The position numbers and the translations under genes are program-made. Positions 1-16,734 of a stretch of DNA of 64,000 bases are shown here, piece by piece; the stretch's first letter is position 1, and each line of letters begins with the position of its first letter. The notes under the pieces were generated by a model. The model did no database searches and had not been told where the DNA came from. It saw only the letters and a program-made list of their open reading frames with translations. The stretch comes from Armatimonadota bacterium (GTDB taxonomy: Bacteria > Armatimonadota > HRBIN16): NCBI GenBank assembly GCA_963677485.1, contig OY781964.1, forward strand, positions 2,752,001-2,816,000. Direction: 5' to 3'.

Positions 1-449
1 AAGTTCAGATCGTCGACCTTAAGGCGGTGCTCAGCGACGGCACTTCAATGCCTGTCAGCATCGCCCGCAAGGACAGCGACTGGCGTTTAGCATGGTTGAA
101 GCCAACCTCAGCCCCTGCAAACCCGCTGCCTTTCATGCGAGAACCTGCAGCCGGGCCACTAAAGCTTAGTGAGGATCTGTGGTCTGTTTTCCGTGCTCCT
201 GAAGGGATGCAGTATGCAGTTGGTGTGCAAAAGATGTGTTACATTGGCTCGATCGACAACCCAGTTCGGATGCCCCTTGGCATGGGCGATGGTGAGCTCA
301 ACAGTCCTGTGTTTACCTCTGACGGCAAATGGGTAGGATTGGTGGTGAATCCGCCAGGTGAGAGCGAGTTTGGCATAGACGAGATCACCATTCTGCCGGT
401 AAAGAACCTGATGAAAGCCAGTGGATTACCGTATGTGGAGGCCAGATAA
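1..449 (+). CDS. Trypsin-like peptidase-domain protein, 5'-truncated by the window edge, probably catalytically degenerate
   Basis: ORF 27..449 has 'PVSIARKDSDWRLAWLK' and 'SPVFTSDGKWVGLVV', typical of HtrA-like folds, but no GNSGG motif. The frame appears to be open from the window start. Confidence 0.55.
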   Translation, partial: VQIVDLKAVLSDGTSMPVSIARKDSDWRLAWLKPTSAPANPLPFMREPAAGPLKLSEDLWSVFRAPEGMQYAVGVQKMCYIGSIDNPVRMPLGMGDGELNSPVFTSDGKWVGLVVNPPGESEFGIDEITILPVKNLMKASGLPYVEAR

Positions 450-450
450 C

Positions 451-1242
451 ATGAAACCCATACTAGCTATTGTCATCGGCGTGATGGCGTTAAGTGGAGC
501 GGGGATGGCCCAGAAGCTTACTGTGCCGGAGCAAGCCCGCGACCAATTTTCACCGGTGCTGTTACGAATGGAAGCCAACACACAGGTTGGGCCGGATGCT
601 GAGCCTACCGATTCGGGACAAAACACCGCCACTGCTGTGGTGATGAGCAGTGACGGGCTGCTGATAACCACACTGAGTGCCGTAGACCCTCTGTCTATGC
701 TGGGTGACAAGGCCACAGGCGATCAGTTTAGGCTGAAAGTGAGCGGACTGAAAGTGGTTCTGCCAGACGCCACAGAGATGCCGGCGCAAGTGGTGCTGCG
801 TGATAAACAGACAGGTTTTGCTGTCATCAAATTGAACGACAAGCCGAAGCAACCGCTAGCCGCCTTGCCGTTAGCGAATGTCAAACCGCTTGAGGTGGGT
901 GATGATATCTACCTGGTCGACAGATTAGGCCCAGATATGGAGAATATCTGCGTGGTGAGCTCCCAGATGGTTATGGCCAGGCTGAGTTATCCCATCAACA
1001 AAGCGGTGGTCACAGGTGGTAATGTGGTGGGAGCCATAGCCATAAATCAAGCTGGCGAGGTCTGCGGACTGGTGTCGATGTACCGTCCTGATGCCAAACG
1101 AACCTACGCGGTCTACACAGTGATCGGCCCCGATGAGTTGAAGGCACTGCTTGAGAAGGCTCGACGTGCCGGTCCTGATGTGGCCAACAGCAACGATGCT
1201 GCGCAACCGACTGTCAGCCAATTACCCGCAAAGACTGATTAA
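451..1242 (+). CDS. Secreted trypsin-like peptidase-domain protein (degenerate active site)
   Basis: Signal peptide MKPILAIVIGVMALSGAGMA from ATG 451. Motifs 'AVVMSSDGLLIT', 'VLRDKQTGFAVIKL' and 'AINQAGEVCGLVS' follow the S1C fold. Confidence 0.65.
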   Translation: MKPILAIVIGVMALSGAGMAQKLTVPEQARDQFSPVLLRMEANTQVGPDAEPTDSGQNTATAVVMSSDGLLITTLSAVDPLSMLGDKATGDQFRLKVSGLKVVLPDATEMPAQVVLRDKQTGFAVIKLNDKPKQPLAALPLANVKPLEVGDDIYLVDRLGPDMENICVVSSQMVMARLSYPINKAVVTGGNVVGAIAINQAGEVCGLVSMYRPDAKRTYAVYTVIGPDELKALLEKARRAGPDVANSNDAAQPTVSQLPAKTD

Positions 1243-1475
1243 GGTTCAGTGGGCGGGTGAATGCGATACCCGCCAGAGCCCATCATCTTGTTGTGAGCCA
1301 TGGGCCCATATTCATCGCCATTTGGCATATCCTGAGAGCCGGCTTCTAGCCGGCTTTTCGGTTAATAAGCCGTGTCCTTTAGGGCGCGGGGACGAAGTCA
1401 CGTTTGGCGGCCAATTGCAGACTGGGCTGCCGTGCCGGCCCGGGCGGTTGCTTGTTCCTGACACAAATCTTTCAT

Positions 1476-1549
1476 GGCTATCCGCCAGACCGGCGCGGTC
1501 TTGAGCCTTCTGCAGCCATTAGCCTACGGTCAGACCGCCCCGGACATAG
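1476..1549. repeat. CCGGCGCGGTC...GACCGCCCCGGACAT hairpin repeat, copy 1
   Basis: The same motif recurs at 40847-40913 and 41080-41132, and partially (reversed) near 29356. Confidence 0.7.
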
Positions 1550-1576
1550 GCAACGCTTGACTGCAAGCACCATAAT

Positions 1577-1606
1577 CAAAAAGGGCGGGCAAATGCCCGC
1601 CCTTTG
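1577..1606 (-). terminator. Intrinsic terminator downstream of the citrate synthase-like gene
   Basis: Perfect stem AAAGGGCGGGC-AAAT-GCCCGCCCTTT with a U-tract on the minus strand, about 17 bp after the stop codon. Confidence 0.8.
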
Positions 1607-1622
1607 AGTTAGGTGACTGAGG

Positions 1623-3446
1623 CTAATGCAGAGACTCGTGTGTGCGAACTAAGGCTTCAAACCGAAGGTCGGTGCCCAGCACGCCCAGCACGTTCTCGTC
1701 ATCATCGGTGATCGTGCATGACAAGGTCACGCACAATACGCCGGTGATGCGGGATTTATAGAACTCCGTAATGTACACCTGACCTGGACCCGCATCCAAC
1801 GCGCCTACAAACCAGTCGCGGTCAGCGAAGTCATGATCAAGGCCATATGTTCCAAAGGTTTCTCGGAACTGTGGCTGGGTGACATTGTTGGTAATCTTCT
1901 TGCCCTTCGTATCCACCACATATGCGAACTGGATGAACGCATGTTTATGTACCGCATCTTCTAGAACTTTTTCGATCCTGCTATTGTCCATGCTGATGAT
2001 TTCTGGGTTCTGAACCAGCTCCGCAACGATCTTTTCCACCAGGTTAAGTGCATGATCACGCAGCTTATCGAAGTCGCTCTTGAAGTATTCGGGCAGATGC
2101 ATCCGCGACTGCATCAGCATCTCGTTATCCGATATGGAGGTGACGCGGCCTTGCGCATACTGCTGTCTGATCCACTCCAGCATTCCTGCTAGTCCTGCGT
2201 GCCGCTTATCCAAGGCTACCTCTGGACGAAGCCCCAGGTAGTTGTTGACCCAATGGGCCACTCCGGCCACGCCGGATTTATCGGTGATGTTGACTCGGGC
2301 CGGACGGTCCAGGATCTTGTCGGTATCGAAGATGTTATATATCTCCGCATCTTTCAACATGCCGTCTGCATGAATTCCAGCACTGGTGGCATTGAAGTGT
2401 GAGCCCACGAAGGGATAAGAGGGTGATATATCGACGCCCATCTCTTTTTGGAAGTAGTCAGCGATCTCCGTGATGATGCGCGTATCCACGCCGTTGGTGT
2501 CGCCCTTCAGGGAGATGTAGTCCATGATGGCTCCCTCAAGCGGCGGGTTGCCGGTGCGCTCACCAAAGCCTAGAAGCGCGCAGTTGGCGTTAGAGCACCC
2601 ATACAGCCAGGCGGTGGTGGAGTTGACCAGCACCTTATGGAAGTCGTTATGTCCGTGCCACTCAAGCCACTCACTAGGAACCCCGCATTCGTGGATCATC
2701 GTGTGGATCATCTTGGGCACGCTGCGCGGTAGGGTGGCCTCCGTGTAGGGCACGCCAAATCCCATGGTGTCGCACAACCGGATTTTGACCGCCTTTTTAC
2801 TTTCGCGAGCGACTTCCATCAGCCTTTGTACGAAGGGGATGATGAAGCCGTCGAAGTCCGCGCGGGTGACGTCCTCGAGGTGGCATCGCACCGCGTCAAG
2901 ACCAGACTCCAGGGCCGTGGTGACCAGGTCGACATACATCTCCAGTGCCTGAGAACGCGATTTATTCATTTTGCGGAAGATGTGGTAGTCCGATGCGGAG
3001 GTCAGAATGCCGGTTTCGCGCAGGCCCATCTCCTTCACCAGTTTGAAATCCGCTTTAGTGGCGCGGATCCATCCGGTGACCTCAGGGAACTTGTGGCCCA
3101 GCTCCAGGCATTTATATACGGCCTCTTTATCCTTGTCGCTATACAGGAAGAACTCCGTGGCGCGGATGACACCGTTGGGCCCGCCCAACTGGTTCAGCAG
3201 ATCATACAGGCGCACGATATGCTCAACTTTATATGGCGGCCTGGACTGCTGTCCGTCGCGGAACGTCGTGTCCGTGATATACATTTCTCGTGCGGGTTCC
3301 ATGGGCACAGAGTGACCGTCGAAGACAAGACGCGGCACCTCTGAGTATGGGAACTGCTCCCGCAGCATGTTCGGTTCCGGTACATCAACGACTTCTCGTT
3401 TGGAGGTGGTGTGTAGTAAACCCCATCGCGGGTTTTTTGATATCAT
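1623..3446 (-). CDS. Re-citrate synthase-like DRE-TIM metallolyase (IPMS/homocitrate synthase superfamily) with C-terminal Cache/PDC-like domain
   Basis: Motifs ITDTTFRDGQQ, WHGHNDF, GERTGN and TSAGIHADG. The C-terminal 'DFADRDWF...ITEFYKSRITGVLCVTLS...GVLGTD' is Cache-like. Confidence 0.8.
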   Translation of the reverse strand: MISKNPRWGLLHTTSKREVVDVPEPNMLREQFPYSEVPRLVFDGHSVPMEPAREMYITDTTFRDGQQSRPPYKVEHIVRLYDLLNQLGGPNGVIRATEFFLYSDKDKEAVYKCLELGHKFPEVTGWIRATKADFKLVKEMGLRETGILTSASDYHIFRKMNKSRSQALEMYVDLVTTALESGLDAVRCHLEDVTRADFDGFIIPFVQRLMEVARESKKAVKIRLCDTMGFGVPYTEATLPRSVPKMIHTMIHECGVPSEWLEWHGHNDFHKVLVNSTTAWLYGCSNANCALLGFGERTGNPPLEGAIMDYISLKGDTNGVDTRIITEIADYFQKEMGVDISPSYPFVGSHFNATSAGIHADGMLKDAEIYNIFDTDKILDRPARVNITDKSGVAGVAHWVNNYLGLRPEVALDKRHAGLAGMLEWIRQQYAQGRVTSISDNEMLMQSRMHLPEYFKSDFDKLRDHALNLVEKIVAELVQNPEIISMDNSRIEKVLEDAVHKHAFIQFAYVVDTKGKKITNNVTQPQFRETFGTYGLDHDFADRDWFVGALDAGPGQVYITEFYKSRITGVLCVTLSCTITDDDENVLGVLGTDLRFEALVRTHESLH

Positions 3447-3511
3447 AGTCTATATCTCCTGTCGCTCAAGTATTAATGTGTACCAAATATAGTGTACCCT
3501 CAGCAAAAAGA

Positions 3512-3529
3512 TTGTGCCAAATTTCACAA
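3512..3529. promoter_or_regulatory. Putative Rex operator
   Basis: TTGTGCCAAATTTCACAA matches the Rex consensus TTGTGAA-N4-TTCACAA at 12 of 14 positions. It lies about 65 bp upstream of the citrate synthase-like gene, and rex is in the window. Confidence 0.6.
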
Positions 3530-3736
3530 TGTCTATTAACATGATTAGTGGACTCGAATGGCTTGGTTGATGAAAGTGAAGAACCCAAGATTAGTGAGTC
3601 GGAGTAAAATGCCGTAGCAAACTGGTTATGGACCATGATGTGTCTCATGGACATCCTACACATTCTGCGACTATACAATCTTACGACACTCTACTAAATA
3701 TAAGTAACTGATGGTGATCAGGATCGCATCATCCGC

Positions 3737-3946
3737 TCACATCCTGGTCGTCGGATACCGGTCCTTGATATTAGCGAAGAAGTACATGCCATGAGAAGCG
3801 GCACTCATCAGAGCATCGTACTCCGATGCGGGGACACCACTGTATTGGTATACAATGCCACGCATGAACTCTATCTCAAGAATTACTGTGTCTGGGTCGT
3901 ATCCGATCGATACTAAATTACTAGATGATACTTGAATGCGTTCCAT
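3737..3946 (-). CDS. KTSC domain protein (69 aa)
   Basis: MERIQVSSSNLVSIGYDPDTVILEIEF...YQYSGVPASEYDALMSAASHGMYF is a canonical KTSC pattern. ATG 3946 has an AGGAG RBS and lies 5 bp after the herA stop. Confidence 0.9.
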   Translation of the reverse strand: MERIQVSSSNLVSIGYDPDTVILEIEFMRGIVYQYSGVPASEYDALMSAASHGMYFFANIKDRYPTTRM

Positions 3947-5555
3947 TCTTATTACTCCTTTTCTTGCTCGCTGTTCGATTCCGAAGGCGCTGCATTTACC
4001 CCGGCACTTGGATTCTGATACCGCCAAGCCTCAACAAGAGGCTTGTAGTCTTCGGCTTTGGGTGGCTCTGTCCAACCACCTTCCCGTATGCGCTTTCCGT
4101 CCTCCCCTTTAGGGACAACGACCAACGGGTCGTCGCTATCAGGGCGACAGCCAACTGGCGGTCGATCAATCACTGTTCGGATCGGCATGTTGACGGCTTC
4201 CCCAACGATCAGAGCCTCGCCTGTGCGCAGTATGGGAAGCATCGAAAACAGACCTTTTAAATTGTCAGCAACACATCTGGTAACCTGACCTTGATCTTGT
4301 TCATTGGTCAGTCGCATTGCGACAATAGTTCCACATTGAGAGAGAATCGTTTGGTCGATTTCCGAAGGGCGTTGACTCACCAGCATAAGGCCAACGCCGT
4401 ACTTACGTCCCTCTTTGGCGATACGGCGCGTTGCTGCTGCGGCGCGACCTTTGGATTGTGCGCCTAAATAGTTATGTGCTTCCTCCAATACCAGCAATAA
4501 CGGTCGTTGGCGACCTCCTTCTGGCTTTAATCTTCCCCAGAACATAGCGTCATACAGAATTCGCAGCATTGCTCCCACAATGTCATCGATAATGGCTGAG
4601 GGAACACCAGATAAATCGAACACGGAAATCGGGGTATCCGAGCCAACCCAGTCAGAGAGCAGTTTGTCCAAATCGAGCTCTGTCTTGCCATCCGGCGAAA
4701 CCGCCCACTTACCAGGACGGAATAGGAACTGCATCCTAGGATCGCGAAGCTTCATCTCTAGCATGTCGATGTGGTTGTGAGGTTGATTCGAGTACTGACT
4801 GAGGTATATTTTCGGGGTGCTCGATTTATCCTCTGGCATGAACTTTGGACGCACAAGTCCGTTGACATCTCCTTTAGCTTCAATGGGTGGTGTGCCATCC
4901 TTTGCCCATGCTCTTGTAGCTTCTGTCGGGTTCTGATTAGAGCTGACCGTATGGGTAGCGAAGTGTAAACAATACAAATCATACCAAAGCTTGTGCACTG
5001 AAAATGGTAGCGGTGTGTCTACTGTGATGTCGGTATCAGGCATGATATCAACAATTCCGCCAGAGGCCGAAGCTCTTCGTGCTGTCAGCACATGTTCTTG
5101 GACAAGTGCGAACGGGGTTCCGGTGATATTTCCCATCGAAAAAGAAAGGAACTCGTCGAATGCCAGTGCCCAGTAGGGAATGTACAGTTCGCTTTCGTTA
5201 GCGTCAGTATCTGCTCCAATTCTAAATACCCTCGCCCTTGTCCCGAATGCCTTTGCGTATTCACCATGAAGATCGAGCAGGACAACGCGGGCTGACCCAA
5301 ATCTGCTTGCATCAGAAACCGCTCCCAACAAACTCGCTACTGCCGTAGACTTCCCGGCTCCTGTACTACCAACAACAGCAGAGTGGCGGCTCACAAGACG
5401 GTTCATGTCGAGATAGGCTTTGATGGATTCGGCGCTGGAGACCTTACCTATGTGAGCGGCACCCGAATTTTTACAGACAGAATATTAAGGTAAACTGAGT
5501 TCATGAGGACACATCATTTGAATGATCCGGATCCGATGTCTGTTCCGACGTCCGG

Positions 5556-5930
5556 GTGGAAAGAGCCCCGGAAGGAGCGCGGAGCGCGACTGAAGGGGCG
5601 AGTTCCACCCCGGACGTAAATTTTTTACCGGAGAGCCGACGGTGGTCCTGCCGACGCAAACTTGAGGTGGTTCAACGCTTGATTGGCGGCGAATCCTTGG
5701 AGATCGTATCAAGGCAAATAGGTGTACCGATATATCAGATTGAGGAGTGGCGTGATAGAGCCCTGGCTGGCATGGAATCCGCTCTGAAGATACGTGTTCA
5801 AGATCCCTTAGAGCATCAGCTCAAAGAGGCCCAGCGACGTATCGGTGAGCAATCTATGGAGATTGAACTCCTATACGAGCGATGTCACCGGAGAGAAGCC
5901 CCTTTTACGCGGGGGAAATTACGGAAATGA
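5556..5930 (+). CDS. IS transposase OrfA (HTH)
   Basis: HTH-like 'RWSCRRKLEVVQRLIGGESLEIVSRQIGVPIYQIEEWR' followed by a coiled coil. C CCT TTT slippery heptamer at 5900-5906. Start codon uncertain. Confidence 0.8.
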   Translation: MERAPEGARSATEGASSTPDVNFLPESRRWSCRRKLEVVQRLIGGESLEIVSRQIGVPIYQIEEWRDRALAGMESALKIRVQDPLEHQLKEAQRRIGEQSMEIELLYERCHRREAPFTRGKLRK

Positions 5931-6841
5931 GCACTGCCATTTCCCCCGCCACATGCGCTCACTATGGTGTAGAAAGGGTATGCCGAGTTTGGGAACAACC
6001 TCGCTCTACCTACTATATGCAAATCACAGAGGCTGTTCATCCTGCTTTAAGCACACCCAGGCTAAAGCGTGGACCCAAGACCTCCGTTTCCGATGATGAA
6101 CTATTGGAAGCGATCAAGCTTGTAATCAATGGCTCTCCATTTCAAGGTGAAGGCTATAAGAAAATCCACGCGTCACTGCACTTTGGAGCACAGAAGTTGC
6201 GAGTGGGCAGGAACTGTGTGCTTCGGCTAATGCGTAACAATGAGCTTCTATCGCCTTATCGCAGACCTAAGGCAGATACTAATCAACACAATGGAACGAT
6301 CATTACTGATGCTCCCAATATCATGTGGGGTACTGACGGCACACAGGTGCGGACGGTTGATGATGGAAATATCTGGATATTCAGTGCGGTAGAACACTGG
6401 AACGGTGAGTGCGTAGGCATATATGTCTGCAAACTCGGTACCCGGTTCAACGCCGTTCAACCTGTGCTTGAAGGGGTTCAGGCTATATATGGCAGCGTAG
6501 AGCGTGCTGTCGCCAACGGGCTTACTCTGAGACTCGACAACGGATCCGCAAATTGCTCCGATCACTTCCAGTATGAAATCAAGCGGCTGGGGATCACACC
6601 CAGCTTCAGCTATGTGCAACAGCCCCAGACAAATGGTGTGGTTGAGCGATTCAACCGGACACTAAAGGAACAGGTCATTTACGCACATGTATTTCAGAAT
6701 GTCGACGAAGTGAGGGAAGCAGTGCTACAATTCAAACAGGAGTACAATCGTTCGTGGCGATTGGAGAAGATGGGATTCAAAACGCCGCTTGAAACCCGCC
6801 AGTGCTTTGTAGAAGAGCACTCCATTACAACTGCGGCTTAA
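5927..6841 (+). CDS. IS transposase OrfB (rve integrase/DDE domain)
   Basis: DDE triad WGTDGT / RLDNGS / NGVVERFNRTLKE. In the -1 frame relative to OrfA, with an ATGA overlap at the OrfA stop. Confidence 0.9.
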   Translation: MSTAISPATCAHYGVERVCRVWEQPRSTYYMQITEAVHPALSTPRLKRGPKTSVSDDELLEAIKLVINGSPFQGEGYKKIHASLHFGAQKLRVGRNCVLRLMRNNELLSPYRRPKADTNQHNGTIITDAPNIMWGTDGTQVRTVDDGNIWIFSAVEHWNGECVGIYVCKLGTRFNAVQPVLEGVQAIYGSVERAVANGLTLRLDNGSANCSDHFQYEIKRLGITPSFSYVQQPQTNGVVERFNRTLKEQVIYAHVFQNVDEVREAVLQFKQEYNRSWRLEKMGFKTPLETRQCFVEEHSITTAA

Positions 6842-7492
6842 CACTAACCCGTGTCTGTGTAACTGGGTGCGATACAGACCTTACCTATGGTAACATAAGC
6901 ATCCTCATCGCCTGGCGCGTACACCGTCTCCAGGTCGGACTCGGTAACAACATGCACAGAATCGCCGATGGATGGATACTGCGAAATGCCTCGTTCAAAT
7001 GGCTTGCCTCTGCGTCCCTCACCAACCATCTCTACACGTAACCAGCGATTCCCTAATAGAGGCACTGTATCTGGTCCACCCGGAGCTGCGCCTGCACCAA
7101 CTTGCGAGATGATTCCATATAGGTCCACATATCCTGCCGGGATACGAACAAATCCGCCTACCTGTCCCGCTCGGTAACCTTCTCCGTTTACGAACAGGAG
7201 GCCAGTGGGTGTATTCTCTGGCAACTTCACACTGATACTTGAGCCGTTTACATCTTCGACAGTTCCAAGGCGCGAGGGATCAGGATTGAGTTGTTTGTTC
7301 GTCATTGTGTTTCATCCCACCGCAGAGTTGTTCAAGAAATAGCCCAAAGTAATGGAAGTCACCCAGCCTCGACATTGTTTGCTTCTGTCGTGTCAATAGT
7401 CACCTTATTACTACCACCCATGTTCGGCATATGTATACCACTTGACTAGTTCGTGTTCATTGCCCAATGTAAGTGTTGGATGCGTCGGTATC

Positions 7493-8260
7493 TCACTCTA
7501 CGGATGCATTATCCGGCTTGCTTACCTCCCCTCTGCGCTGCCTTTGGCGATAGCTCTCACCGGTGACAACAGTCACCCGGGCATGGTGAGTCAATCTGTC
7601 CATAGCAGCTGAAGCGAGAAGAGAGTCGCCAAACATCTCCGGCCATTCGGAGGGAGCCCGATTAGATGTCAATACAATACTGCCCTTCTCGTATCTCTGG
7701 TGGATGATCTCGTAGAGGTCTTCCGCTCCCTGAATTGTGATGGGGCGAAGACCAAAGTCGTCGAGTATCAGGAGGTCAACGTTGACCAATTTCTTAATCA
7801 ACCGCGTATAAGCATCGTCTGCCCTGGCCGCAAACATCTCCTGTTGCAACTTGTGGACAGAACTGTTATAAACACTGTAGCTTCGCTTAATGGCCTCATA
7901 ACCTATGGCGGTGGCTAGATGTGTCTTGCCCACACCAGTGGGACCACACACCAGCCAGTTGGCATGTTGAGCGATTAACTGGCAGGTCGCCATCTCCCTT
8001 ACCAGCGAACGATCAAGGGTAGGTACAGCGTTGAAGTCGAAGTGGGACAGCAGTTTCGTGTTCTCGAAACAGGCCGCCTTCTCCATCTTTACCTGTTTAG
8101 TTTGGCTGCGTCGCTCAAGCTCATCATCTACTAATAACGCAAGGAACTCCGTTGGTGAGAGCTTTTGCTCACGGGCTAGCTCCGCTCTCTCTTCGAGGCT
8201 ATCAACCATGCCAGACCATCTGAGTTGCCTGAGCTTGGGTAGCAGTGTGTGAGTTAACAC
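7493..8260 (-). CDS. istB: IS21 helper ATPase IstB
   Basis: Walker A GPTGVGKT, Walker B LLILDDFG, plus LTSNR and AMDRLTHH. Confidence 0.95.
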   Translation of the reverse strand: MLTHTLLPKLRQLRWSGMVDSLEERAELAREQKLSPTEFLALLVDDELERRSQTKQVKMEKAACFENTKLLSHFDFNAVPTLDRSLVREMATCQLIAQHANWLVCGPTGVGKTHLATAIGYEAIKRSYSVYNSSVHKLQQEMFAARADDAYTRLIKKLVNVDLLILDDFGLRPITIQGAEDLYEIIHQRYEKGSIVLTSNRAPSEWPEMFGDSLLASAAMDRLTHHARVTVVTGESYRQRQRRGEVSKPDNASVE

Positions 8261-9813
8261 GCTTCTACCTCCATATTGGTGTCAGCATTACTGACCAAAA
8301 TGAATTCGTCGGCACTACGAGCGAAGAGGTAGTCTTTTTTAGGGGGAAGAGAAGATGTTATTCCCATTGGCTCGTGATCTGTACCGGCCCTCAGTATCTT
8401 AGCAATGCGTTGGTAACTACCATCTTGGTAATAGAGAGAGCGTGCGCAGGCCGCTTCCAGGCGACTACTGCTGTACGTTTGAACTAGCCGGACGATCCTC
8501 TTCACGGATTGTCTTCGGTCTACAGGCCTGTCAGCCAGCAAAGCATTAAGCACCGTAACACAACTGGGGCCGATGTCATGCCCTAATTCCAGGCAATTCT
8601 CGATTGAAAGAACCATATAGGCCACTTTATGTGTTGGGTAATCAGTCATGCGGGTAATGCGCTGCCCTTGTTGTGTCGCTCTTTGATGTGTTCCAACTAG
8701 TTTATGGTCGTTATCATATATCTGCACCACTCGTTCGTGCAGATGCACGTCCATTTGGCTGCCTATGTAGCTGTAGGGCACGGAATAGTAAGAACCATAC
8801 ACTGTAACATGACAGTCCCGATGGACTTTCGCACTACGAACTTCAATGAGATCAAATTCCGTGTCTGGTAATGACTTAAGCGTGCTCTTCTCTACCTGAT
8901 TGAACTGCGCCAATGGCTGTTTATGTGTGGTTCCATGGTTACGCAGACCTGCCTCTTGTGTGATCCAGGTCTTCACAAGCAGGTTCGCTTCGTCGATATC
9001 CATGAACTCCCGGCCTGCAATGAAGTTTCGCTGCACGTAATGAACCCCGTTTTCCACTTTTCCTTTATGCTCCGGGGTTCTCACTCTACACGGATGAATG
9101 AGGAAGTCGTAGTGCAAGGCCAGTTGCCGATACGGCTCCGAGATGACAGGGTCGTATATATCTGCTTTGAGAACCGCTGACTTTAGATTGTCTATCACAA
9201 GTTCCTCTGGAACGCCTCCGAAGAATTCAAAGGCGTTGATATGGCAGTTCACCCATGTGGGTATCCTTTGATTGAATACAAACTCCACATATTGATGTCG
9301 AGAGTGTGATAGCGTCATCAAGAAGGCATACGTTGAACGCATCTTGCCTGTTGCGGGGTCCTTCATTTGCCCCACAAATCCGAAGTCAACCTGGGCCTGT
9401 TTTCCTGGGTCTGTCTCTAGACGTATAATGGCCAACTGCTCTTTGGGGGTCAGTCCGTTAATGAAGCGAATAACCGAAGAGTAGCTACCGGTAAACCCGT
9501 ATAGTCGTTTGAGGTTGTTGTGGATGGTCACTGCCTCTATGTGAGTCTGGAGATAGGTCTCGATGATTTCGCGGTATGGTTCAGCACTAGACACATTACT
9601 GCGTCGTTTGCGCTGCGGTAAGGTGTCACGAAATGCCTCCATACTCGGCATATCTGAATCTGGAGCCAGGTATCCAAGTCGAGAAGCCCACTGTGCGTAT
9701 TGGCTGACGGTGTTACGAGCGCAGCCCGTGTCACGAGAAATCGCTCGTTGGGACTGCCCACGCCGCAGTCGGAATATGATCTCTTCTATGATCTGCATTC
9801 TTAGCCTTTCCAT
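8254..9813 (-). CDS. istA: IS21 transposase IstA
   Basis: N-terminal HTH, then QAQVDFG, VIDNLKSAV, KGKVENGV and YYSVPY. Overlaps the istB start. Confidence 0.95.
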   Translation of the reverse strand: MERLRMQIIEEIIFRLRRGQSQRAISRDTGCARNTVSQYAQWASRLGYLAPDSDMPSMEAFRDTLPQRKRRSNVSSAEPYREIIETYLQTHIEAVTIHNNLKRLYGFTGSYSSVIRFINGLTPKEQLAIIRLETDPGKQAQVDFGFVGQMKDPATGKMRSTYAFLMTLSHSRHQYVEFVFNQRIPTWVNCHINAFEFFGGVPEELVIDNLKSAVLKADIYDPVISEPYRQLALHYDFLIHPCRVRTPEHKGKVENGVHYVQRNFIAGREFMDIDEANLLVKTWITQEAGLRNHGTTHKQPLAQFNQVEKSTLKSLPDTEFDLIEVRSAKVHRDCHVTVYGSYYSVPYSYIGSQMDVHLHERVVQIYDNDHKLVGTHQRATQQGQRITRMTDYPTHKVAYMVLSIENCLELGHDIGPSCVTVLNALLADRPVDRRQSVKRIVRLVQTYSSSRLEAACARSLYYQDGSYQRIAKILRAGTDHEPMGITSSLPPKKDYLFARSADEFILVSNADTNMEVEAC

Positions 9814-11603
9814 GTATGCCCTCCTGATAAAACTGTGTCTATCATTTAGGCGGTCAGGGGCATCGAAACACGGCTAGAGTGGTATAGTCATGCCGAACAT
9901 GGGTGGCTCACACATGCCGAATGGGCTGGTATAGTGTAACCCGATTAGCGACATGTCGAAATGTTGTTTCATCGGTCGGGACCTCAACATCGTGTAACCA
10001 TGGCAGGTGTTCCCCATCGCCGCTCGTTCCCGCACGATACTGGCCAACGCGTGTTCCTACGACTGCTCCATCAGATGCAAGGACGGTCAGATTGGGTTGA
10101 GACTTGGCATATTCGACGGCACGTTCATGAGCATCCAGTGTTGAATACATCAAGGCAAAACACTGAGCCTTCAGGTTACCCCTTAAGCCGTCCAGTAGAA
10201 TCTCGTTGAAGTGATCATCAATAAAGGAATAGCCACATATAATTAGTCTTGGTGAACCGTGTGTACGCTGGTCTGAATGTCCTCGCCCAGATGATTCACC
10301 TCGGAAAAAAGCACGCAGCCTATCAAGCATGGCTAAATAAGGCATGCGGCGGCTCTGGTCATATTTCAAGTGTGATGGGTAGATCATCACTTTCTTCTGT
10401 GCTTCACGCGCCACACGCACAACACGTGTGGTAGTTTTACCATTTTTTATTTCCTCAATTTGTTCCCAGTTGATTGACCCATGGAGTTTCCAAAGCCGAG
10501 TCCATCGCAACGGTATGACGTCATGTTCTATGGAAGCGAGGTCAAACCACGGCTCTCGCGTTCCGACGAATCCATCGAAGTGCGGAAGCGACTGACGCTC
10601 AAACGCCTGCTCAAAGAGTAAATCGTAGTTCGGTGTGAATAATTCCACAGGGAAGCTACGCGCTACTCCGCCAATCCATGATGCAAAACGGGTATATGAG
10701 CAGCGATGACTCGGCAGTTCTTTTGACATCACGCCCTTGATTGAGGAGCATATTATATCATCCAAGCTGTTCAACGCATCCTTCGTCATATCCAGCACGT
10801 TGCTGTTTCTTTTTCTACTGGAAAGGATGCGGAGTTCAGTGAGTACATCCTCGACAGTAGGCACGGTAGCAATGGGGCAACTCTGGCCATGACATTCACC
10901 ACATGCTGGTGCTTCTCTACATCCTTTGCACTCCTTACAGATAGCATCCCAAGCTTTTCGATATTCTATCCCACTGCTGGCATTCGCATCTTCTTTATCG
11001 AGAGCTTCAATAACCTGCGTTGTGAGGTTCTTAATATCTGGTATCAGGTTAAGACTCTCAGTTCCATTATTGTCATACACACCAAGTGGACAACCAGCAC
11101 CCAAGAAGAATCCGATCTTCTGCTTGTTGTCCTCCAGTACTTGCCGGAGAGTGTCCACTTGCTGGCTGGCATTATGTATTTTTCCATACTTTTGATCTGT
11201 TTCGGTATTATTTTGCACTATGGACGGTACAACAGAAGAACCTGCCTGCGCTGAAATTTCGGTCATGGAATTACATCCCTCTTAGATACCAGCATTATAA
11301 GAAAAATCGCAACCATGTGTAAATTCTCACATAGAATAGCTTTGTATGAATTCCGCATTTTACTCGACTGGATGGTTATACATTCGATCATAGTCATCCT
11401 GATATCGACGCCACATACACATTACTCCTTTCCAAACACCGTTACAATCTGTCATCCAGATCGCCAATGAGGTCAACTCTCGGTCAAGGTCACCTGCAGC
11501 GACATATTCCCGTACGTGGTGTATCACTTGGACAACAAAGCAGGATTACCCGCCCAGCCTACTGAATATTAGACAGACCAAACCCCACCCAGGAGAAATA
11601 AGT

Positions 11604-13466
11604 ATGCTTAGCGATATTCAGTTTATCCCTCGCCCACGCGTCATCAACGACGTTCCTGAAAGCTTCATCGTGGCAGCGCATCACACCATAGGCAGTATGG
11701 ACGTCATCAACAACTACCCCAATCTGTTGAAACTGCAGCAGGTGATTAAAGAGGAGCTGGGCGTCACTGCCGAGATTGTGTGTGGCTGCGACTGCACATA
11801 CCAGCTCAGCATCGAGCCGACCCTTGGCAAGCAGGCCTATGAGCTGGCGATCAGCGCTGGGTGCGTCAGCATTGTAGGCGGATGTGAGGCGGGGCTGTAT
11901 TACGGCATCTGCACGCTGAAGCAGATCATCCGCGAGTCTGGCAATGAGCTCTGGTGCGGCAGCATCCAGGACCGCCCGGACTACCCAGTGCGCGGCCTGA
12001 TGCTGGACATCTCGCGCGACATGGTGCCCACCATGGACACGCTGAAGATGACAGTGGACATGCTGGCAGACCTCAAACTCAACCGTCTGGAGCTCTATGC
12101 GGAGCACACCTTCAAATACCGTAACCATCCGCAGGTTTGGAGCCTGGCCAGTCCGATCAGCGGAGAGCAGATCCTTGAGCTTCAAGCCTACTGCAAGCTG
12201 AGGCACATCGAGTTGGTGCCCAACCAGAACTGCTTCGGGCACATGCGCCGATGGTTGGATCATCCCGACTATCTGCACCTTGCAGAATCTCCTGAGGGCT
12301 TCGAGTGGCCCTGGGGAGGCAAAATGGAGGGTCCATTCTCGCTGAATTCGCAAGACCCTGAAGCCATCAAGCTGGTGGAGGGCATGTTCGACGAGATGCT
12401 GCCCTATTTTGAGAGCCCCAACGTGAATGTGGGCTGCGACGAGACCTTCGACCTTGGCGCCGGGGCCAGCAAAGAGGCTTGCGAGCGGCTGGGCAAGGGT
12501 CGGGTTTACCTGAATTTCCTTCTGGAAATTTACAAGGTCATGAAAAAGCATGGCAAGGTGATGAACTTCTGGGGTGACATCGTGCAAGAGCACCCCGAGC
12601 TGGTGCCGGAGCTGCCCAAGGACGTGATCGCGTTGGAATGGGGATATGACAAGGGCCATCCCTGGCAGGAGCGTCTGGCTAGGCTGCAGGAAGCTGGTCT
12701 GCCGATCTATGTCTGCCCGGGCACCTCAGCCTGGGGCACCATCGCCGGGCGCACCGATAACTGCATCGCCAACCTGAAGGAAGCCGCGGTTTATGGCCTG
12801 CAGTATGGCGCGATCGGGTATCTGAACACGGACTGGGGCGACTACGGTCATGTCAACAAAACGCCGGTATCCTACCTGGGATACGCCGTTGGCGCGGCTT
12901 ATAGCTGGACTGCGGAGCAGAGTGACCAGATCGACATCCCGGCCGCTCTCAGCAAGCAGGTGTTCAATGACCCCACCGGTCAGATGGGCACCGTGGCTTA
13001 TGAAATGGGCAACGCGCACCTGAAGCTAGGCAAAGTCGTGGGCAACTCCAGCGTGCTTTGGCAAGGCATCGTGCCCGGGCTCAGTGCGGAATCGTTGAAA
13101 GCAGATGACCGCGGCCCTGAGATCACGGTGGAGAAGATCGATGAGGCGATCGCAATGATTGAGGCGTTGCAGGCGCGCGTGCTGCGATCCGGCAGTAAGC
13201 GAGCGGATGCTCAGTTGCTGGTGGATGAGTGGTATAGCGTGGGCGAGATGCTGAAACACGGCTGTTACCGCTGGCGCGCTCTGGCTGAGGGTCGCTACGA
13301 AAACCAAGCCACGAAGAACAGGCTGTCGTCGCACCTTCGCACCGTGATCGGCGAGCACCAGCGGCTCTGGATGCAGCGTGCCGAGGTAGGCGGTCTGCGC
13401 GACAGCGTCAGCCGGCTGTGGAACCTGATGAACGAATACGGGATCAAAGAGCACCAGGGTATGTAG
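11604..13466 (+). CDS. Glycoside hydrolase family 20 (beta-N-acetylhexosaminidase-like)
   Basis: RGLMLDISRD, ELVPNQNCFGH, catalytic NVGCDET, and FWGDI. Confidence 0.9.
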   Translation: MLSDIQFIPRPRVINDVPESFIVAAHHTIGSMDVINNYPNLLKLQQVIKEELGVTAEIVCGCDCTYQLSIEPTLGKQAYELAISAGCVSIVGGCEAGLYYGICTLKQIIRESGNELWCGSIQDRPDYPVRGLMLDISRDMVPTMDTLKMTVDMLADLKLNRLELYAEHTFKYRNHPQVWSLASPISGEQILELQAYCKLRHIELVPNQNCFGHMRRWLDHPDYLHLAESPEGFEWPWGGKMEGPFSLNSQDPEAIKLVEGMFDEMLPYFESPNVNVGCDETFDLGAGASKEACERLGKGRVYLNFLLEIYKVMKKHGKVMNFWGDIVQEHPELVPELPKDVIALEWGYDKGHPWQERLARLQEAGLPIYVCPGTSAWGTIAGRTDNCIANLKEAAVYGLQYGAIGYLNTDWGDYGHVNKTPVSYLGYAVGAAYSWTAEQSDQIDIPAALSKQVFNDPTGQMGTVAYEMGNAHLKLGKVVGNSSVLWQGIVPGLSAESLKADDRGPEITVEKIDEAIAMIEALQARVLRSGSKRADAQLLVDEWYSVGEMLKHGCYRWRALAEGRYENQATKNRLSSHLRTVIGEHQRLWMQRAEVGGLRDSVSRLWNLMNEYGIKEHQGM

Positions 13467-13483
13467 CAGATCGGGTGTGGTTC

Positions 13484-13507
13484 GTAGGGGCGAACGGCCG
13501 TTCGCCC
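13484..13507 (+). repeat. GTAG-type REP hairpin
   Basis: GTAG-GGGCGAACGG-CCGTTCGCCC, between convergent genes. Confidence 0.65.
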
Positions 13508-13538
13508 TTAGATTCTAAAGCAACGAAGCCGAAAGCGG

Positions 13539-15161
13539 CTACGACTTGCTCTCGTGGTATTCCTTCTCCACATTCACATTCCACACATCATCGCGGTTTT
13601 GAATCTTGCCCGAAATGTAGTCCACCGCGACCATGGCGGTCAGCATAGAGTGGTCCTGGTTGTTATATCTGTGCTGCCCATTACGCCCCACCATGAAGAG
13701 GTTCTCAAACCGGCTAAGGTAACTCTTGACCTGGTCGAATTGCTCATAGCTGCCGAAATAGGCGGGATAGGCTTTCGGTACGCGGATCAGCACGGTCTTC
13801 AAGATATCATCAACATCAACCACGCCGATGGTCGCCAGCTCTTTGACGGCAAACGCGCAGAAGCTCTTATCATCCATCGACCAGAGCTCATCACCCTCGT
13901 TCGCAAAGTATTCCATACCAACCCAGGCTGTATTGCTATCCGCCACCATGTAGGGGCTCCAGTTGTTAAATATCTGAAGCCTGCCCACGCGCACATCGGG
14001 TTCCTGGATATATATCCAGTTGTCAGGCACAATATTGTTTACCGATGGGCGGTCGGTGTCATTGGTGAGCTTCAGCTTACGGGCCAGCACGCCCACGGTC
14101 ATGAAGTCGCGGTACTGCAGACCGGCGGCCACATCCGCTATCTCTTGCGGCACTTGAGTTTTGAGTGCTGGCAGCAGCTCCTTGATGGGCATACTGCTGA
14201 ATACGTAATCTCCCAATATCGTCTCAACCTCACCAGTTTCGGGGTTCAACACTTGAACTCCTGTGATGCGGTCGCCCTCTGTCGTCAGCCCTACTACCTT
14301 CGTGCCCATACGGATCTCGGCTCCTGCTTGAAGCAGATCAGCTGCCACCACTTCCCACAACTGCCCCGGGCCAAGTTTCGGGTACCAAAACCGCTCGATC
14401 AGACTGGTTTCGACCTTTGATTGGTCTGATTTGCTGGATTTTGGCAGGGCCGATTTGAGGGCGTGGAGAAGGGCTTTACTTAATGATAGCCCCTTAATAC
14501 GCTGCGCACCCCATGCCGCGGACAGCTTGTGGCAGGGGACACCCCAAACCTTCTCGGTGTAATCTCTGAAAAAAGTGCAGTAGAGCTCATACCCAAACTG
14601 GTTGACCAGGAAATCTTCCAACGATCGCACAGGCTTGCGCTTGGCAACTTTGGCCACAACATAACCCCAGCCTATCCGCATCACGCGAGTCAACCCCAGG
14701 TTCTTCAGGGTTTTGCCAGACAGGCTGATGGGGTAGTCAAAAAACTTGCGCAGGAACAGGATTCGCGAGAGGCGGCTCCTGTTGAGCATCACCCGATCCG
14801 TCGCTTCCGGGTCACGCTGTCTGCACTCGATGGCCTCAGACGAATCGAGGGGCAGCACGACGCACTTATCGACCAACTCGACATCACGATGTAGTATCTT
14901 GTCATCAGAGCTTGGTGCTGACTGCGGAGGCATGACGTTGAACCACCAGTCCATGACGCGCTGGGATTTTGAGAAAAACCGGTGCCCGCCGATGTCTATG
15001 CGGTTGCCTTCAAACTGATCGGTACGGGAAATCCCGCCGATTGACTGGCTGGCCTCGAATACTATAGGTTTCACATCAGTGTGGCGAAGCAGCTCGTATG
15101 CCGCCGTTAAGCCCGCAGGGCCAGCTCCTATGATCAATGCGGTTTTCTTCGATTCAGCCAC
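13539..15161 (-). CDS. NAD(P)/FAD-dependent oxidoreductase (protoporphyrinogen oxidase/Glf-like family often found near surface glycan genes)
   Basis: IIGAGPAGL Rossmann motif, [11 protein letters not shown], and [15 protein letters not shown]. Confidence 0.85.
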
Positions 15162-15465
15162 TTGTCTCTACCTCTTTACTACACATCAGGTCTTAACTCA
15201 CTCGATTTCACGATGGCAATACAACAACGTTTTACATGTTCTGCCATGCAGTAGGTTAGAATCGCCTACTACATTCTTGCATAAAAACCAGACATATGGG
15301 AGCCGTTTGGATAGTAACTATTACCGTCACTTGATGCCGACGTTTTTACGATATGCTATAATACCCATATGACGGCGAAACTGCAGAATGTGGGTACTAT
15401 GGAATTTGATCTATTTAATCGAAATGGAGCAGGCCTGCGCAGATGAAAGATGATGGAGTGGCACG

Positions 15466-16734
15466 GTGAGAAAAACCAAATCTGAAAACACGGTTCCATA
15501 CAGCGTTCCATACGGACGATGGTTTTGGATACTGATCTGCTGCGCGTTGGTCGCCTGTCTAGCGACAGTATACCTTCATCGGATGGATACCCCGGACCGG
15601 CTTGCCAATGATGCGCTTGACTACCATAACCTGGCACTGCAGTTGATAAAAGATCACTCATATGGCAGCACCTACCGCGTGCCGGCATATCCTGCCCTGC
15701 TTGCATTGGTGTATGCGGTCACAGGACCAAACCTGCCCGCTGTTTACCTGATGCAGTCGCTGCTATTCGTGGCCTCTTTGGTGTTAGTCTATACTATCGC
15801 TTCTATGCTGGTTCGGAACGAAACCACATCGCTGATTGCTTTGGCGGTTTGTCTACTATATCCACCTTTTTGGCGTTCTCTAACCGATGTGCTCACCGAG
15901 CCTCTGGCCATGTTCCTTGTGACAGCCACAGTATGGCAGTTAATTCTATGTATTGAGAAGGTCAGTGTCCGTCGGTGTTTCGCAGTAGGTGTGCTACTGG
16001 CGATGACTACACTGTGCAAGGCCGTGACGATCCCATACATAATCATAGCGGCATACCTGGTGCTGAAGCCAAATGGAGTGAAGAAACTGAACTGGGCAGG
16101 GGCTTGTGTGCTTCTTGTCGCCGCGTCGGTATGTCTAGGTGCCTGGACGGTGCGAAACTACAGAGTGACGGGTGAAATCATCCCAGTGGCGACGGGTGGC
16201 GGGTTCAATTTTTGGCTGGGAAACTGGTCACCGTATTACCACCACGTATGGAAGTGGCAAAATTATCCACCCGAATTGGCCCGTCAGCTAGCGGGGAAGA
16301 CCGAAGTGGAGCAGGACAAGATATTCACACGGGTGGCGATAAACCAAATGACGAGAGAACCGCTGGCGGCTGCAGGGATGTTTGTTCAGAAGTTCTCCGA
16401 CCTGTGGCTTGCGGGGATCGGTAGAGACCCCGCATCGGTACCCACTCCTGTCAAGGCGATTGGCCGGTTTACTATCCCAAAACTGTCGTTCGTGTGCATC
16501 CCGTTGCTAATATTGGCTGTTATGGGATATCGACGGCTGTCACGTGAGGAACGGCGGCGTGCCCTGCCCGTGACCACGCTGATGCTGTGGTGGACAGCGG
16601 CGTATGTGCTGACTACCGTGGCCCCCGTGCGTTATGTTCTGCCGGTGATGGCATTCGAAGTTGTGCTGGCATCCGTTGCGATATCGGCTGGGGTGACAAG
16701 GCTCGCGATGAAACGCAAACGTGCCACCGCCTGA
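15466..16734 (+). CDS. GT-C membrane glycosyltransferase (GT39/ArnT-like)
   Basis: Multiple TM helices, with 'NDALDYHNLA', 'YRVPAYPALLA', 'LTEPLA', 'WTVRNY' and 'RYVLP'. Confidence 0.8.
   Translation: MRKTKSENTVPYSVPYGRWFWILICCALVACLATVYLHRMDTPDRLANDALDYHNLALQLIKDHSYGSTYRVPAYPALLALVYAVTGPNLPAVYLMQSLLFVASLVLVYTIASMLVRNETTSLIALAVCLLYPPFWRSLTDVLTEPLAMFLVTATVWQLILCIEKVSVRRCFAVGVLLAMTTLCKAVTIPYIIIAAYLVLKPNGVKKLNWAGACVLLVAASVCLGAWTVRNYRVTGEIIPVATGGGFNFWLGNWSPYYHHVWKWQNYPPELARQLAGKTEVEQDKIFTRVAINQMTREPLAAAGMFVQKFSDLWLAGIGRDPASVPTPVKAIGRFTIPKLSFVCIPLLILAVMGYRRLSREERRRALPVTTLMLWWTAAYVLTTVAPVRYVLPVMAFEVVLASVAISAGVTRLAMKRKRATA

Follow-up and report, generated by a model that had tools for sequence, protein, structure and literature searches.

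The locus described here lies in a stretch of 64,000 nucleotides from an Armatimonadota bacterium (GTDB lineage HRBIN16; GenBank assembly GCA_963677485.1, contig OY781964.1, positions 2,752,001 to 2,816,000 of the forward strand), which we refer to as the window, and consists of three genes on the minus strand, sir2, herA and a small gene for a KTSC protein, the first two of which are each interrupted by an insertion sequence (IS). The comparisons below make it very probable that this locus is an anti-phage SIR2-HerA operon of the type known from Paenibacillus sp. 453MF, in which a separate, translationally coupled gene supplies the KTSC module that elsewhere forms the C-terminal end of HerA. 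Judged by sequence comparison, KTSC is a real and conserved part of the SIR2-HerA system. It is not new to such systems, because the same domain belongs to the prototype HerA polypeptide and to its solved structures, and the window carries the split-gene form of a known and structurally solved system. As both catalytic genes, sir2 and herA, are interrupted, the system is predicted to be non-functional in this genome. The components of the operon, in window coordinates, are:

3737..3946, minus strand: KTSC gene, 69 amino acids (aa) plus stop (Pfam PF13619).
3952..5452, minus strand: 3' part of herA, with the RecA-like ATPase, helical bundle, conserved C-terminal tail and acidic linker (PADLOC PDLC04105, Pfam).
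6888..7305, minus strand: 5' part of herA, N-terminal barrel region, ~139 codons (PADLOC PDLC04105).
7280..7390, minus strand: 3' remainder of sir2, 36 codons plus stop, overlapping the herA start by 26 nt (in-silico excision).
9959..11266, minus strand: 5' part of sir2, codons 1-436 (PADLOC SIR2 model PDLC04094, Pfam SIR2_2).
11294..11323, minus strand: promoter-like site, TTTACA / 18-nt spacer / TATAAT (consensus match alone, 11/12).

The reading frame of sir2 is broken after codon 436 by an IS21-family element, and that of herA after codon 139 by an IS3-family element. When both elements are excised in silico, each together with one copy of its target site, the restored frames encode 472 aa (SIR2) and 638 aa (HerA) and overlap by 26 nt. 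Just beyond the repaired sir2 junction stands a LGDFHYFGLF motif that is identical in the homologous loci L001 and L004, and the repaired HerA junction agrees with the consensus of 16 homologs. The KTSC gene starts with an ATG at 3946, 5 nt past the herA TAA (3954-3952), and is preceded by an AAGGAG motif 8 nt upstream of this ATG. The original prediction, made from the sequence alone, had given the two restored lengths, the overlap between sir2 and herA and a KTSC gene with its own ribosome-binding site 5 nt after herA, and all of these were reproduced. The promoter-like site is located ~28 nt upstream of the sir2 ATG, and no convincing terminator was found 3' of the KTSC gene.

The two catalytic proteins are readily placed. 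The SIR2 piece is recovered by the PADLOC model PDLC04094 (E 6e-104) and by Pfam SIR2_2, its closest solved relative is 8w9l_A (E 2.6e-71), and it retains the catalytic residues N213, D215 and H262, which align to the identical N163, D165 and H212 of 8w9l. The C-terminal part of HerA matches PADLOC PDLC04105 (E 5e-132) as well as Pfam DUF87 and HerA_C, while the N-terminal part matches positions 8-132 of the same PADLOC model (E 3.7e-17) and is 78% identical to L001. A HAS-barrel had been predicted in this N-terminal fragment; Pfam finds no HAS-barrel there at E <= 0.01, and to that extent the prediction was not reproduced. The HerA translation contains the Walker A motif GSTGAGKS and a LVLEEAH motif, and the protein as a whole has the N-terminal barrel and the Walker A and Walker B motifs of a HerA. 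Its closest solved structure is 8wiv_A (E 1.4e-140), and among its homologs it is nearer to proteobacterial ones (~70% identity). The NCBIfam equivalog models for anti-phage proteins score far under their cut-offs here (HerA, at 3955-5448, 234 versus 850; SIR2, at 9959-11266, 44 versus 500), in keeping with the unspecific names that such proteins carry in RefSeq, "ATP-binding protein" and "SIR2 family protein". In one cluster representative (P0176, 562 aa) the same polypeptide holds both SIR2_2 and a HerA_C segment; it would be a fusion of SIR2 with HerA or the result of an error in gene calling.

The small protein belongs to the KTSC family (Pfam PF13619, 80.9 bits against a cut-off of 25), for which neither PADLOC nor NCBIfam has a model. 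Its predicted structure (predicted local distance difference test, pLDDT, 95.0) superposes closely on the stand-alone KTSC proteins 4rgi (Z 15.5, root-mean-square deviation (rmsd) 0.8, 69 aligned) and 7x8c (Z 15.4, rmsd 0.5, 68 aligned), and the next, unrelated structural match falls to Z 4.0. These two proteins, 7X8C from Methanolobus vulcani and 4RGI (YPO2434), share the fold and ~45-52% identity with the window KTSC over the whole protein (E 1e-18 and 3e-13).

The comparison with Paenibacillus sp. 453MF shows where this domain belongs. In an alignment with the 696-aa Paenibacillus HerA 8wiv, the window KTSC pairs with residues 630-695 (E 7e-15), and its model superposes on HerA residues 614-696 in 8wld, 8wof, 8wj3 and 8wiv (Z 11.5-12.7, rmsd 1.0-1.2, 67 aligned), most closely on 8wld_M (Z 12.7, rmsd 1.0); hence a KTSC domain is resolved in the cryo-electron microscopy models of the prototype. 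8wiv and its sister entries are the only HerA chains in the structure bank that match a KTSC query. The accessible text of PMC11472057 describes aa 576-696 of the prototype HerA as a C-terminal arm domain that wraps the neighbouring catalytic domain and stabilises a split-spiral hexamer, and in that text the arm is never called KTSC. Side by side, the two systems compare as follows: 1) Paenibacillus sp. 453MF provides both the closest solved HerA and the closest solved SIR2 (8WIV, 8WLD, 8W9L; available text of PMC11472057), with the same catalytic residues. 2) Both share the domain order barrel, RecA, bundle, tail and KTSC. 3) The window has a SIR2_2-type NADase with its catalytic residues, a HerA, and a sir2 that after excision lies immediately upstream of herA. 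4) The arm of the prototype is represented by the HerA tail together with the separate KTSC gene; KTSC is fused to HerA in the 696-aa Paenibacillus protein, whereas in the window it is a 69-aa protein of its own and HerA ends in an acidic linker. 5) The window copy, unlike that of Paenibacillus, is broken, with an IS element in each of sir2 and herA. The original prediction had presented KTSC as a component absent from described SIR2-HerA systems; in this it was mistaken, as the prototype HerA has the domain fused at ~614-696.

To see how firmly KTSC is tied to herA, relatives of HerA were scanned in one genome per species and 80 loci were kept. By tblastn, KTSC follows herA directly and on the same strand in 29 of the 80 loci and in none of the remaining 51, one of which (L063) has a KTSC-like match 3.2 kb upstream. 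In all 29 linked loci KTSC is a separate open reading frame (ORF) of ~66-73 aa, and relative to the herA stop its start lies at -11 to +42 nt, save in L004, where herA itself is broken. SIR2 is encoded upstream in 27 of the 29, and the other two end at a contig edge. In a HerA tree of 78 rows, from which the short-hit loci L004, L061 and L066 were dropped, the window and 28 KTSC-linked loci form one clade with a Shimodaira-Hasegawa-like approximate likelihood ratio test (SH-aLRT) value of 100; since the clade was recovered from the HerA tree, KTSC itself plays no part in how the group is defined. Its members come from about ten phyla (Pseudomonadota, Planctomycetota, Chloroflexota, Actinomycetota, Bacteroidota, Chlorobiota, Verrucomicrobiota, Spirochaetota, Campylobacterota, Omnitrophota and Patescibacteria), and such a mixture suggests that the cassette has spread horizontally as a whole. 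Six SIR2-HerA loci that have no KTSC lie outside the clade. From the other 51 loci, 41 upstream ORFs were scanned with Pfam; among them are Alph_Pro_TM (16), SpoIIE (6) and a different SIR2_2 protein (6), and none of the loci of these three kinds has KTSC.

Divergence within the linked group gives a concordant picture. Across 25 systems, namely the window and the 24 loci in which each of the three genes gave a long hit (the remaining 5 of the 29 being omitted), the mean pairwise identity is 0.47 for KTSC, 0.47 for HerA and 0.39 for SIR2, and the distances between KTSC proteins are correlated with those between HerA proteins (Mantel r 0.79, a value reached in 0 of 2000 permutations). As related systems share their history, this correlation speaks for co-inheritance and not for contact between the proteins. 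The same three-gene layout is found on plasmids: all three records inspected, NZ_CP010123 (E. coli C5 plasmid A), Bradyrhizobium pB41S5 and Citrobacter pRHBSTW-00859_3, list in RefSeq a SIR2 family protein, then an ATP-binding or HerA-like protein, then a KTSC domain-containing protein. Unlike the window copy these are intact, and their HerA proteins are 36-48% identical to that of the window. The E. coli locus was found in 1 of 5,426 complete E. coli genomes.

Natural fusions were sought by scanning 25 of the 150 best HerA profile hits with Pfam, and two of these 25 (P0167 and P0203, both N-terminally truncated fragments) carry a C-terminal KTSC domain on HerA. Both align colinearly with the window HerA followed by KTSC. 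In P0167 the match to the window HerA runs as far as the conserved tail; a linker of ~23 residues comes next, and then a KTSC domain 49% identical to that of the window, which places the split point in the linker. Most representatives that extend to the HerA tail are, judged by their length, too short to hold KTSC, and the split form seems to be commoner than the fused one. A further candidate fusion, P0137 (684 aa), was set aside since its C-terminal tail matched the KTSC profile weakly (hhalign E 0.0014, probability 18%), and a word-index search for longer proteins containing the window KTSC found none. The survey of gene neighbourhoods around close homologs had been set beforehand as a possible refutation of the view that KTSC is part of the system; instead, its presence in 29 of 29 clade loci, the Mantel correlation and the natural HerA-KTSC fusions uphold that view.

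Other solved systems in which a HerA hexamer is paired with an effector, including the E. coli SIR2-HerA/Nezha system (8J4U, 8SU9), 8ZIQ, 9C1M and 8XAU, are distant from the window HerA (E 3e-28 to 1e-49); in the portions of their descriptions available, the outcome of the SIR2 versions is depletion of nicotinamide adenine dinucleotide (NAD+). A coupling of a HerA-like ATPase to a KTSC gene, with an endoDNase replacing the sirtuin, is mentioned as unpublished observations in the accessible part of Iyer et al. 2022 (PMC9503650); that form shares with the window the coupling of HerA and KTSC genes in a conflict system, and a version with an endoDNase in place of the sirtuin was present in none of our 80 HerA loci. 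The main text of a 2026 classification of E. coli Sir2-HerA systems into types I-III (PMC13434337), so far as it is accessible, names no third gene, and in the literature searched no description of a SIR2-HerA-KTSC operon was found.

Stand-alone KTSC genes are common in viruses, with 37 phage records and 264 confirmed IMG/VR stretches whose products are 42-60% identical to the window KTSC. In 79 of the 80 best IMG/VR KTSC loci there is no SIR2 or HerA within 4 kb, and one IMG/VR locus (L139) carries the whole three-gene cassette. PHROGs lists the KTSC family as of unknown function. We attempted to trace the origin of the gene from a tree of operon-linked, fused and viral copies, which with 69 columns stayed unresolved, and therefore no origin could be read from it. 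KTSC positions 61, 64 and 66, all C-terminal, are the only ones more conserved in operon copies than in viral copies; the viral set was picked by a motif over positions 8-17, and those columns are biased accordingly.

The two insertions that separate the pieces of sir2 and herA are:

5453..6876, plus strand: IS3-family element within herA, with orfA 5556-5930 and orfB 5882-6841.
7391..9953, minus strand: IS21-family element within sir2, with istA 8254-9813 and istB 7493-8260.

The IS21-family element is assigned by the Pfam matches of istA and istB and by NCBIfam NF033546 (269.6 bits against a cut-off of 160), and it has the terminal repeats, the 4-8-nt target duplication and the several copies of its family. 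It is flanked by a 5-nt duplication, TGTCG, at 7386-7390 and 9954-9958. All nine matches in its own genome span bases 1-2563 at 99-100% identity, so that the ends are exact over the full 2,563 bases, and 5-8-nt target duplications accompany seven of the nine. Thus the flanks and the nine genomic copies bear out the predicted position of this element (7391-9953) and its TGTCG repeat.

For the IS3-like element the prediction held as to its presence and its excision product, but its start and the length of its repeat had to be changed. Four other full copies in the genome match the originally delimited 5451-6876 only from its base 3, which sets the start at 5453 and the length at 1,424 bp. The flanking direct repeat is of 13 nt, GACCTTACCTATG, at 5440-5452 and 6877-6889, instead of 11 nt, and the excision product is identical with either. 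The element has orfA and orfB in overlapping frames, a DDE rve domain and TG...CA ends, and its NCBIfam score (NF033516, 149.9 bits) lies slightly below the cut-off of 160. Target duplications of the IS3 family are typically 3-5 nt. The present element departs from this, with 13-14-nt flanking repeats in three of the five full copies (C1:630683-632107 and C1:1690136-1691564 among them). Each element shares 99-100% identity with its further genomic copies, so both insertions are evidently recent. At another place in the same genome (C1:3427665-3431663) an IS3-like copy is split into two fragments, and exactly between these lies a copy of the IS21 element (3428188-3430750), flanked by ATCAACCG; this nesting suggests a recent burst of both elements.

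The operon lies in a region that the same-genus genomes searched do not have:

3533..11537, strand not assigned: accessory island, its flanks joined in the same-genus genome G001.

The G001 flanks match window positions 1600-3532 and 11538-13500 and are separated by 1.16 kb of unrelated sequence (L085 3435-4594; G001:C1:2526515-2527674), which is poor in ORFs and has no convincing one; this delimits the island to ~3533-11537. Close relatives differ at this chromosomal site. A search of 20 relatives did not find HerA in 19, both same-genus genomes among them, and the genome itself contains no second HerA of this type and no second KTSC gene. The flanking genes have cluster mates that are labelled Armatimonadota, and there are no tRNA genes within window positions 1-16000. 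Inside the island, an imperfect inverted repeat of ~17 nt (3597-3614 and 11352-11368; exact core GAGTAAAATGC) brackets the three-gene cassette. An 11-mer match between two regions this short is expected ~0.06 times by chance, as an estimate, and the repeat could be a cassette end or a coincidence.

If KTSC is the detached end of HerA, the free protein would dock on the HerA hexamer at the position of the fused domain and so complete the arm. The arm with its KTSC would then wrap the neighbouring RecA-like domain and hold the split-spiral resting state. As a member of the KTSC family is reported to bind single-stranded DNA (ssDNA), a further role of KTSC may be to capture the ssDNA or DNA ends by which HerA is loaded. 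If the studied system is a guide (accessible text of PMC11472057), loading of HerA would switch on its ATPase and the NADase of SIR2, with the consequence that the infected cell loses NAD+.

Several points weigh against this picture. The split KTSC is not tethered to HerA, and its stable docking is an assumption. The contacts of the arm could come from the helices preceding KTSC or from the helices of KTSC itself. The KTSC family may bind ssDNA, and the basis for this is the title in a reference list of a study by Tian et al. 2022, reportedly a biochemical and structural account of a euryarchaeal ssDNA-binding protein of the KTSC family, together with the title of the PDB entry 7X8C. Further, KTSC can work without HerA, as proteins 42-60% identical to it occur alone in many phages, and the HerA tree that delimits the clade is from a quick version of the tree search.

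The same evidence bears on other explanations. KTSC could be an independent subunit, acting as sensor or regulator, and so mark out a three-component subtype of SIR2-HerA that is new and undescribed. This would accord with the separate gene in 29 of 29 clade loci, with the lack of a KTSC model in PADLOC and of a described operon in the literature searched, and with the discussion of PMC11472057, which in its available part gives the phage trigger of the clade as unknown. We nevertheless consider it unlikely, because the same domain lies within the prototype HerA polypeptide and its structures, because a fission or fusion at the linker does not by itself alter function, and because the coupling of HerA and KTSC is already mentioned in the accessible part of PMC9503650. 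A KTSC that acts like an antitoxin, keeping SIR2-HerA off until it is displaced or degraded on infection, is a very improbable alternative: a fused KTSC cannot leave HerA, even if the small size of the protein, its last place in the operon, its tight coupling to herA and the stabilisation of the resting split-spiral state by the prototype arm (as given in the text of PMC11472057 at hand) would all suit such a role.

The abundance of stand-alone KTSC genes in viral contigs, with no SIR2 or HerA nearby in 79 of the 80 best IMG/VR loci, might instead suggest that the gene is an unrelated neighbour, such as a hitch-hiker of phage origin. Such an explanation is scarcely credible and already contradicted by the conservation and fusion data, as KTSC adjoins herA in every clade locus across about ten phyla, starts so as to overlap or abut the herA stop, co-diverges with HerA and occurs naturally fused to it.

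A bolder reading, which we regard as a long shot, is that KTSC is the trigger-reading subunit of the clade, recognising ssDNA intermediates of phages and passing them on to HerA, and that the stand-alone KTSC proteins of phages are its mimics. If so, these mimics would compete for the docking site on HerA or for the DNA signal and thus constitute a counter-defence against the split form.

The identification has consequences for how the family is described and studied. Part of what the structural paper calls the "arm domain" of the prototype HerA is a KTSC domain, a name that the paper, in the part accessible, does not use. Since KTSC is encoded separately in all 29 clade loci and lies outside the PADLOC and NCBIfam profiles, "two-gene" SIR2-HerA constructs taken from genomes of this clade may miss a needed part. 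With a family member reported to bind ssDNA and with close homologs in phages, KTSC is also a candidate for the phage trigger of this clade.

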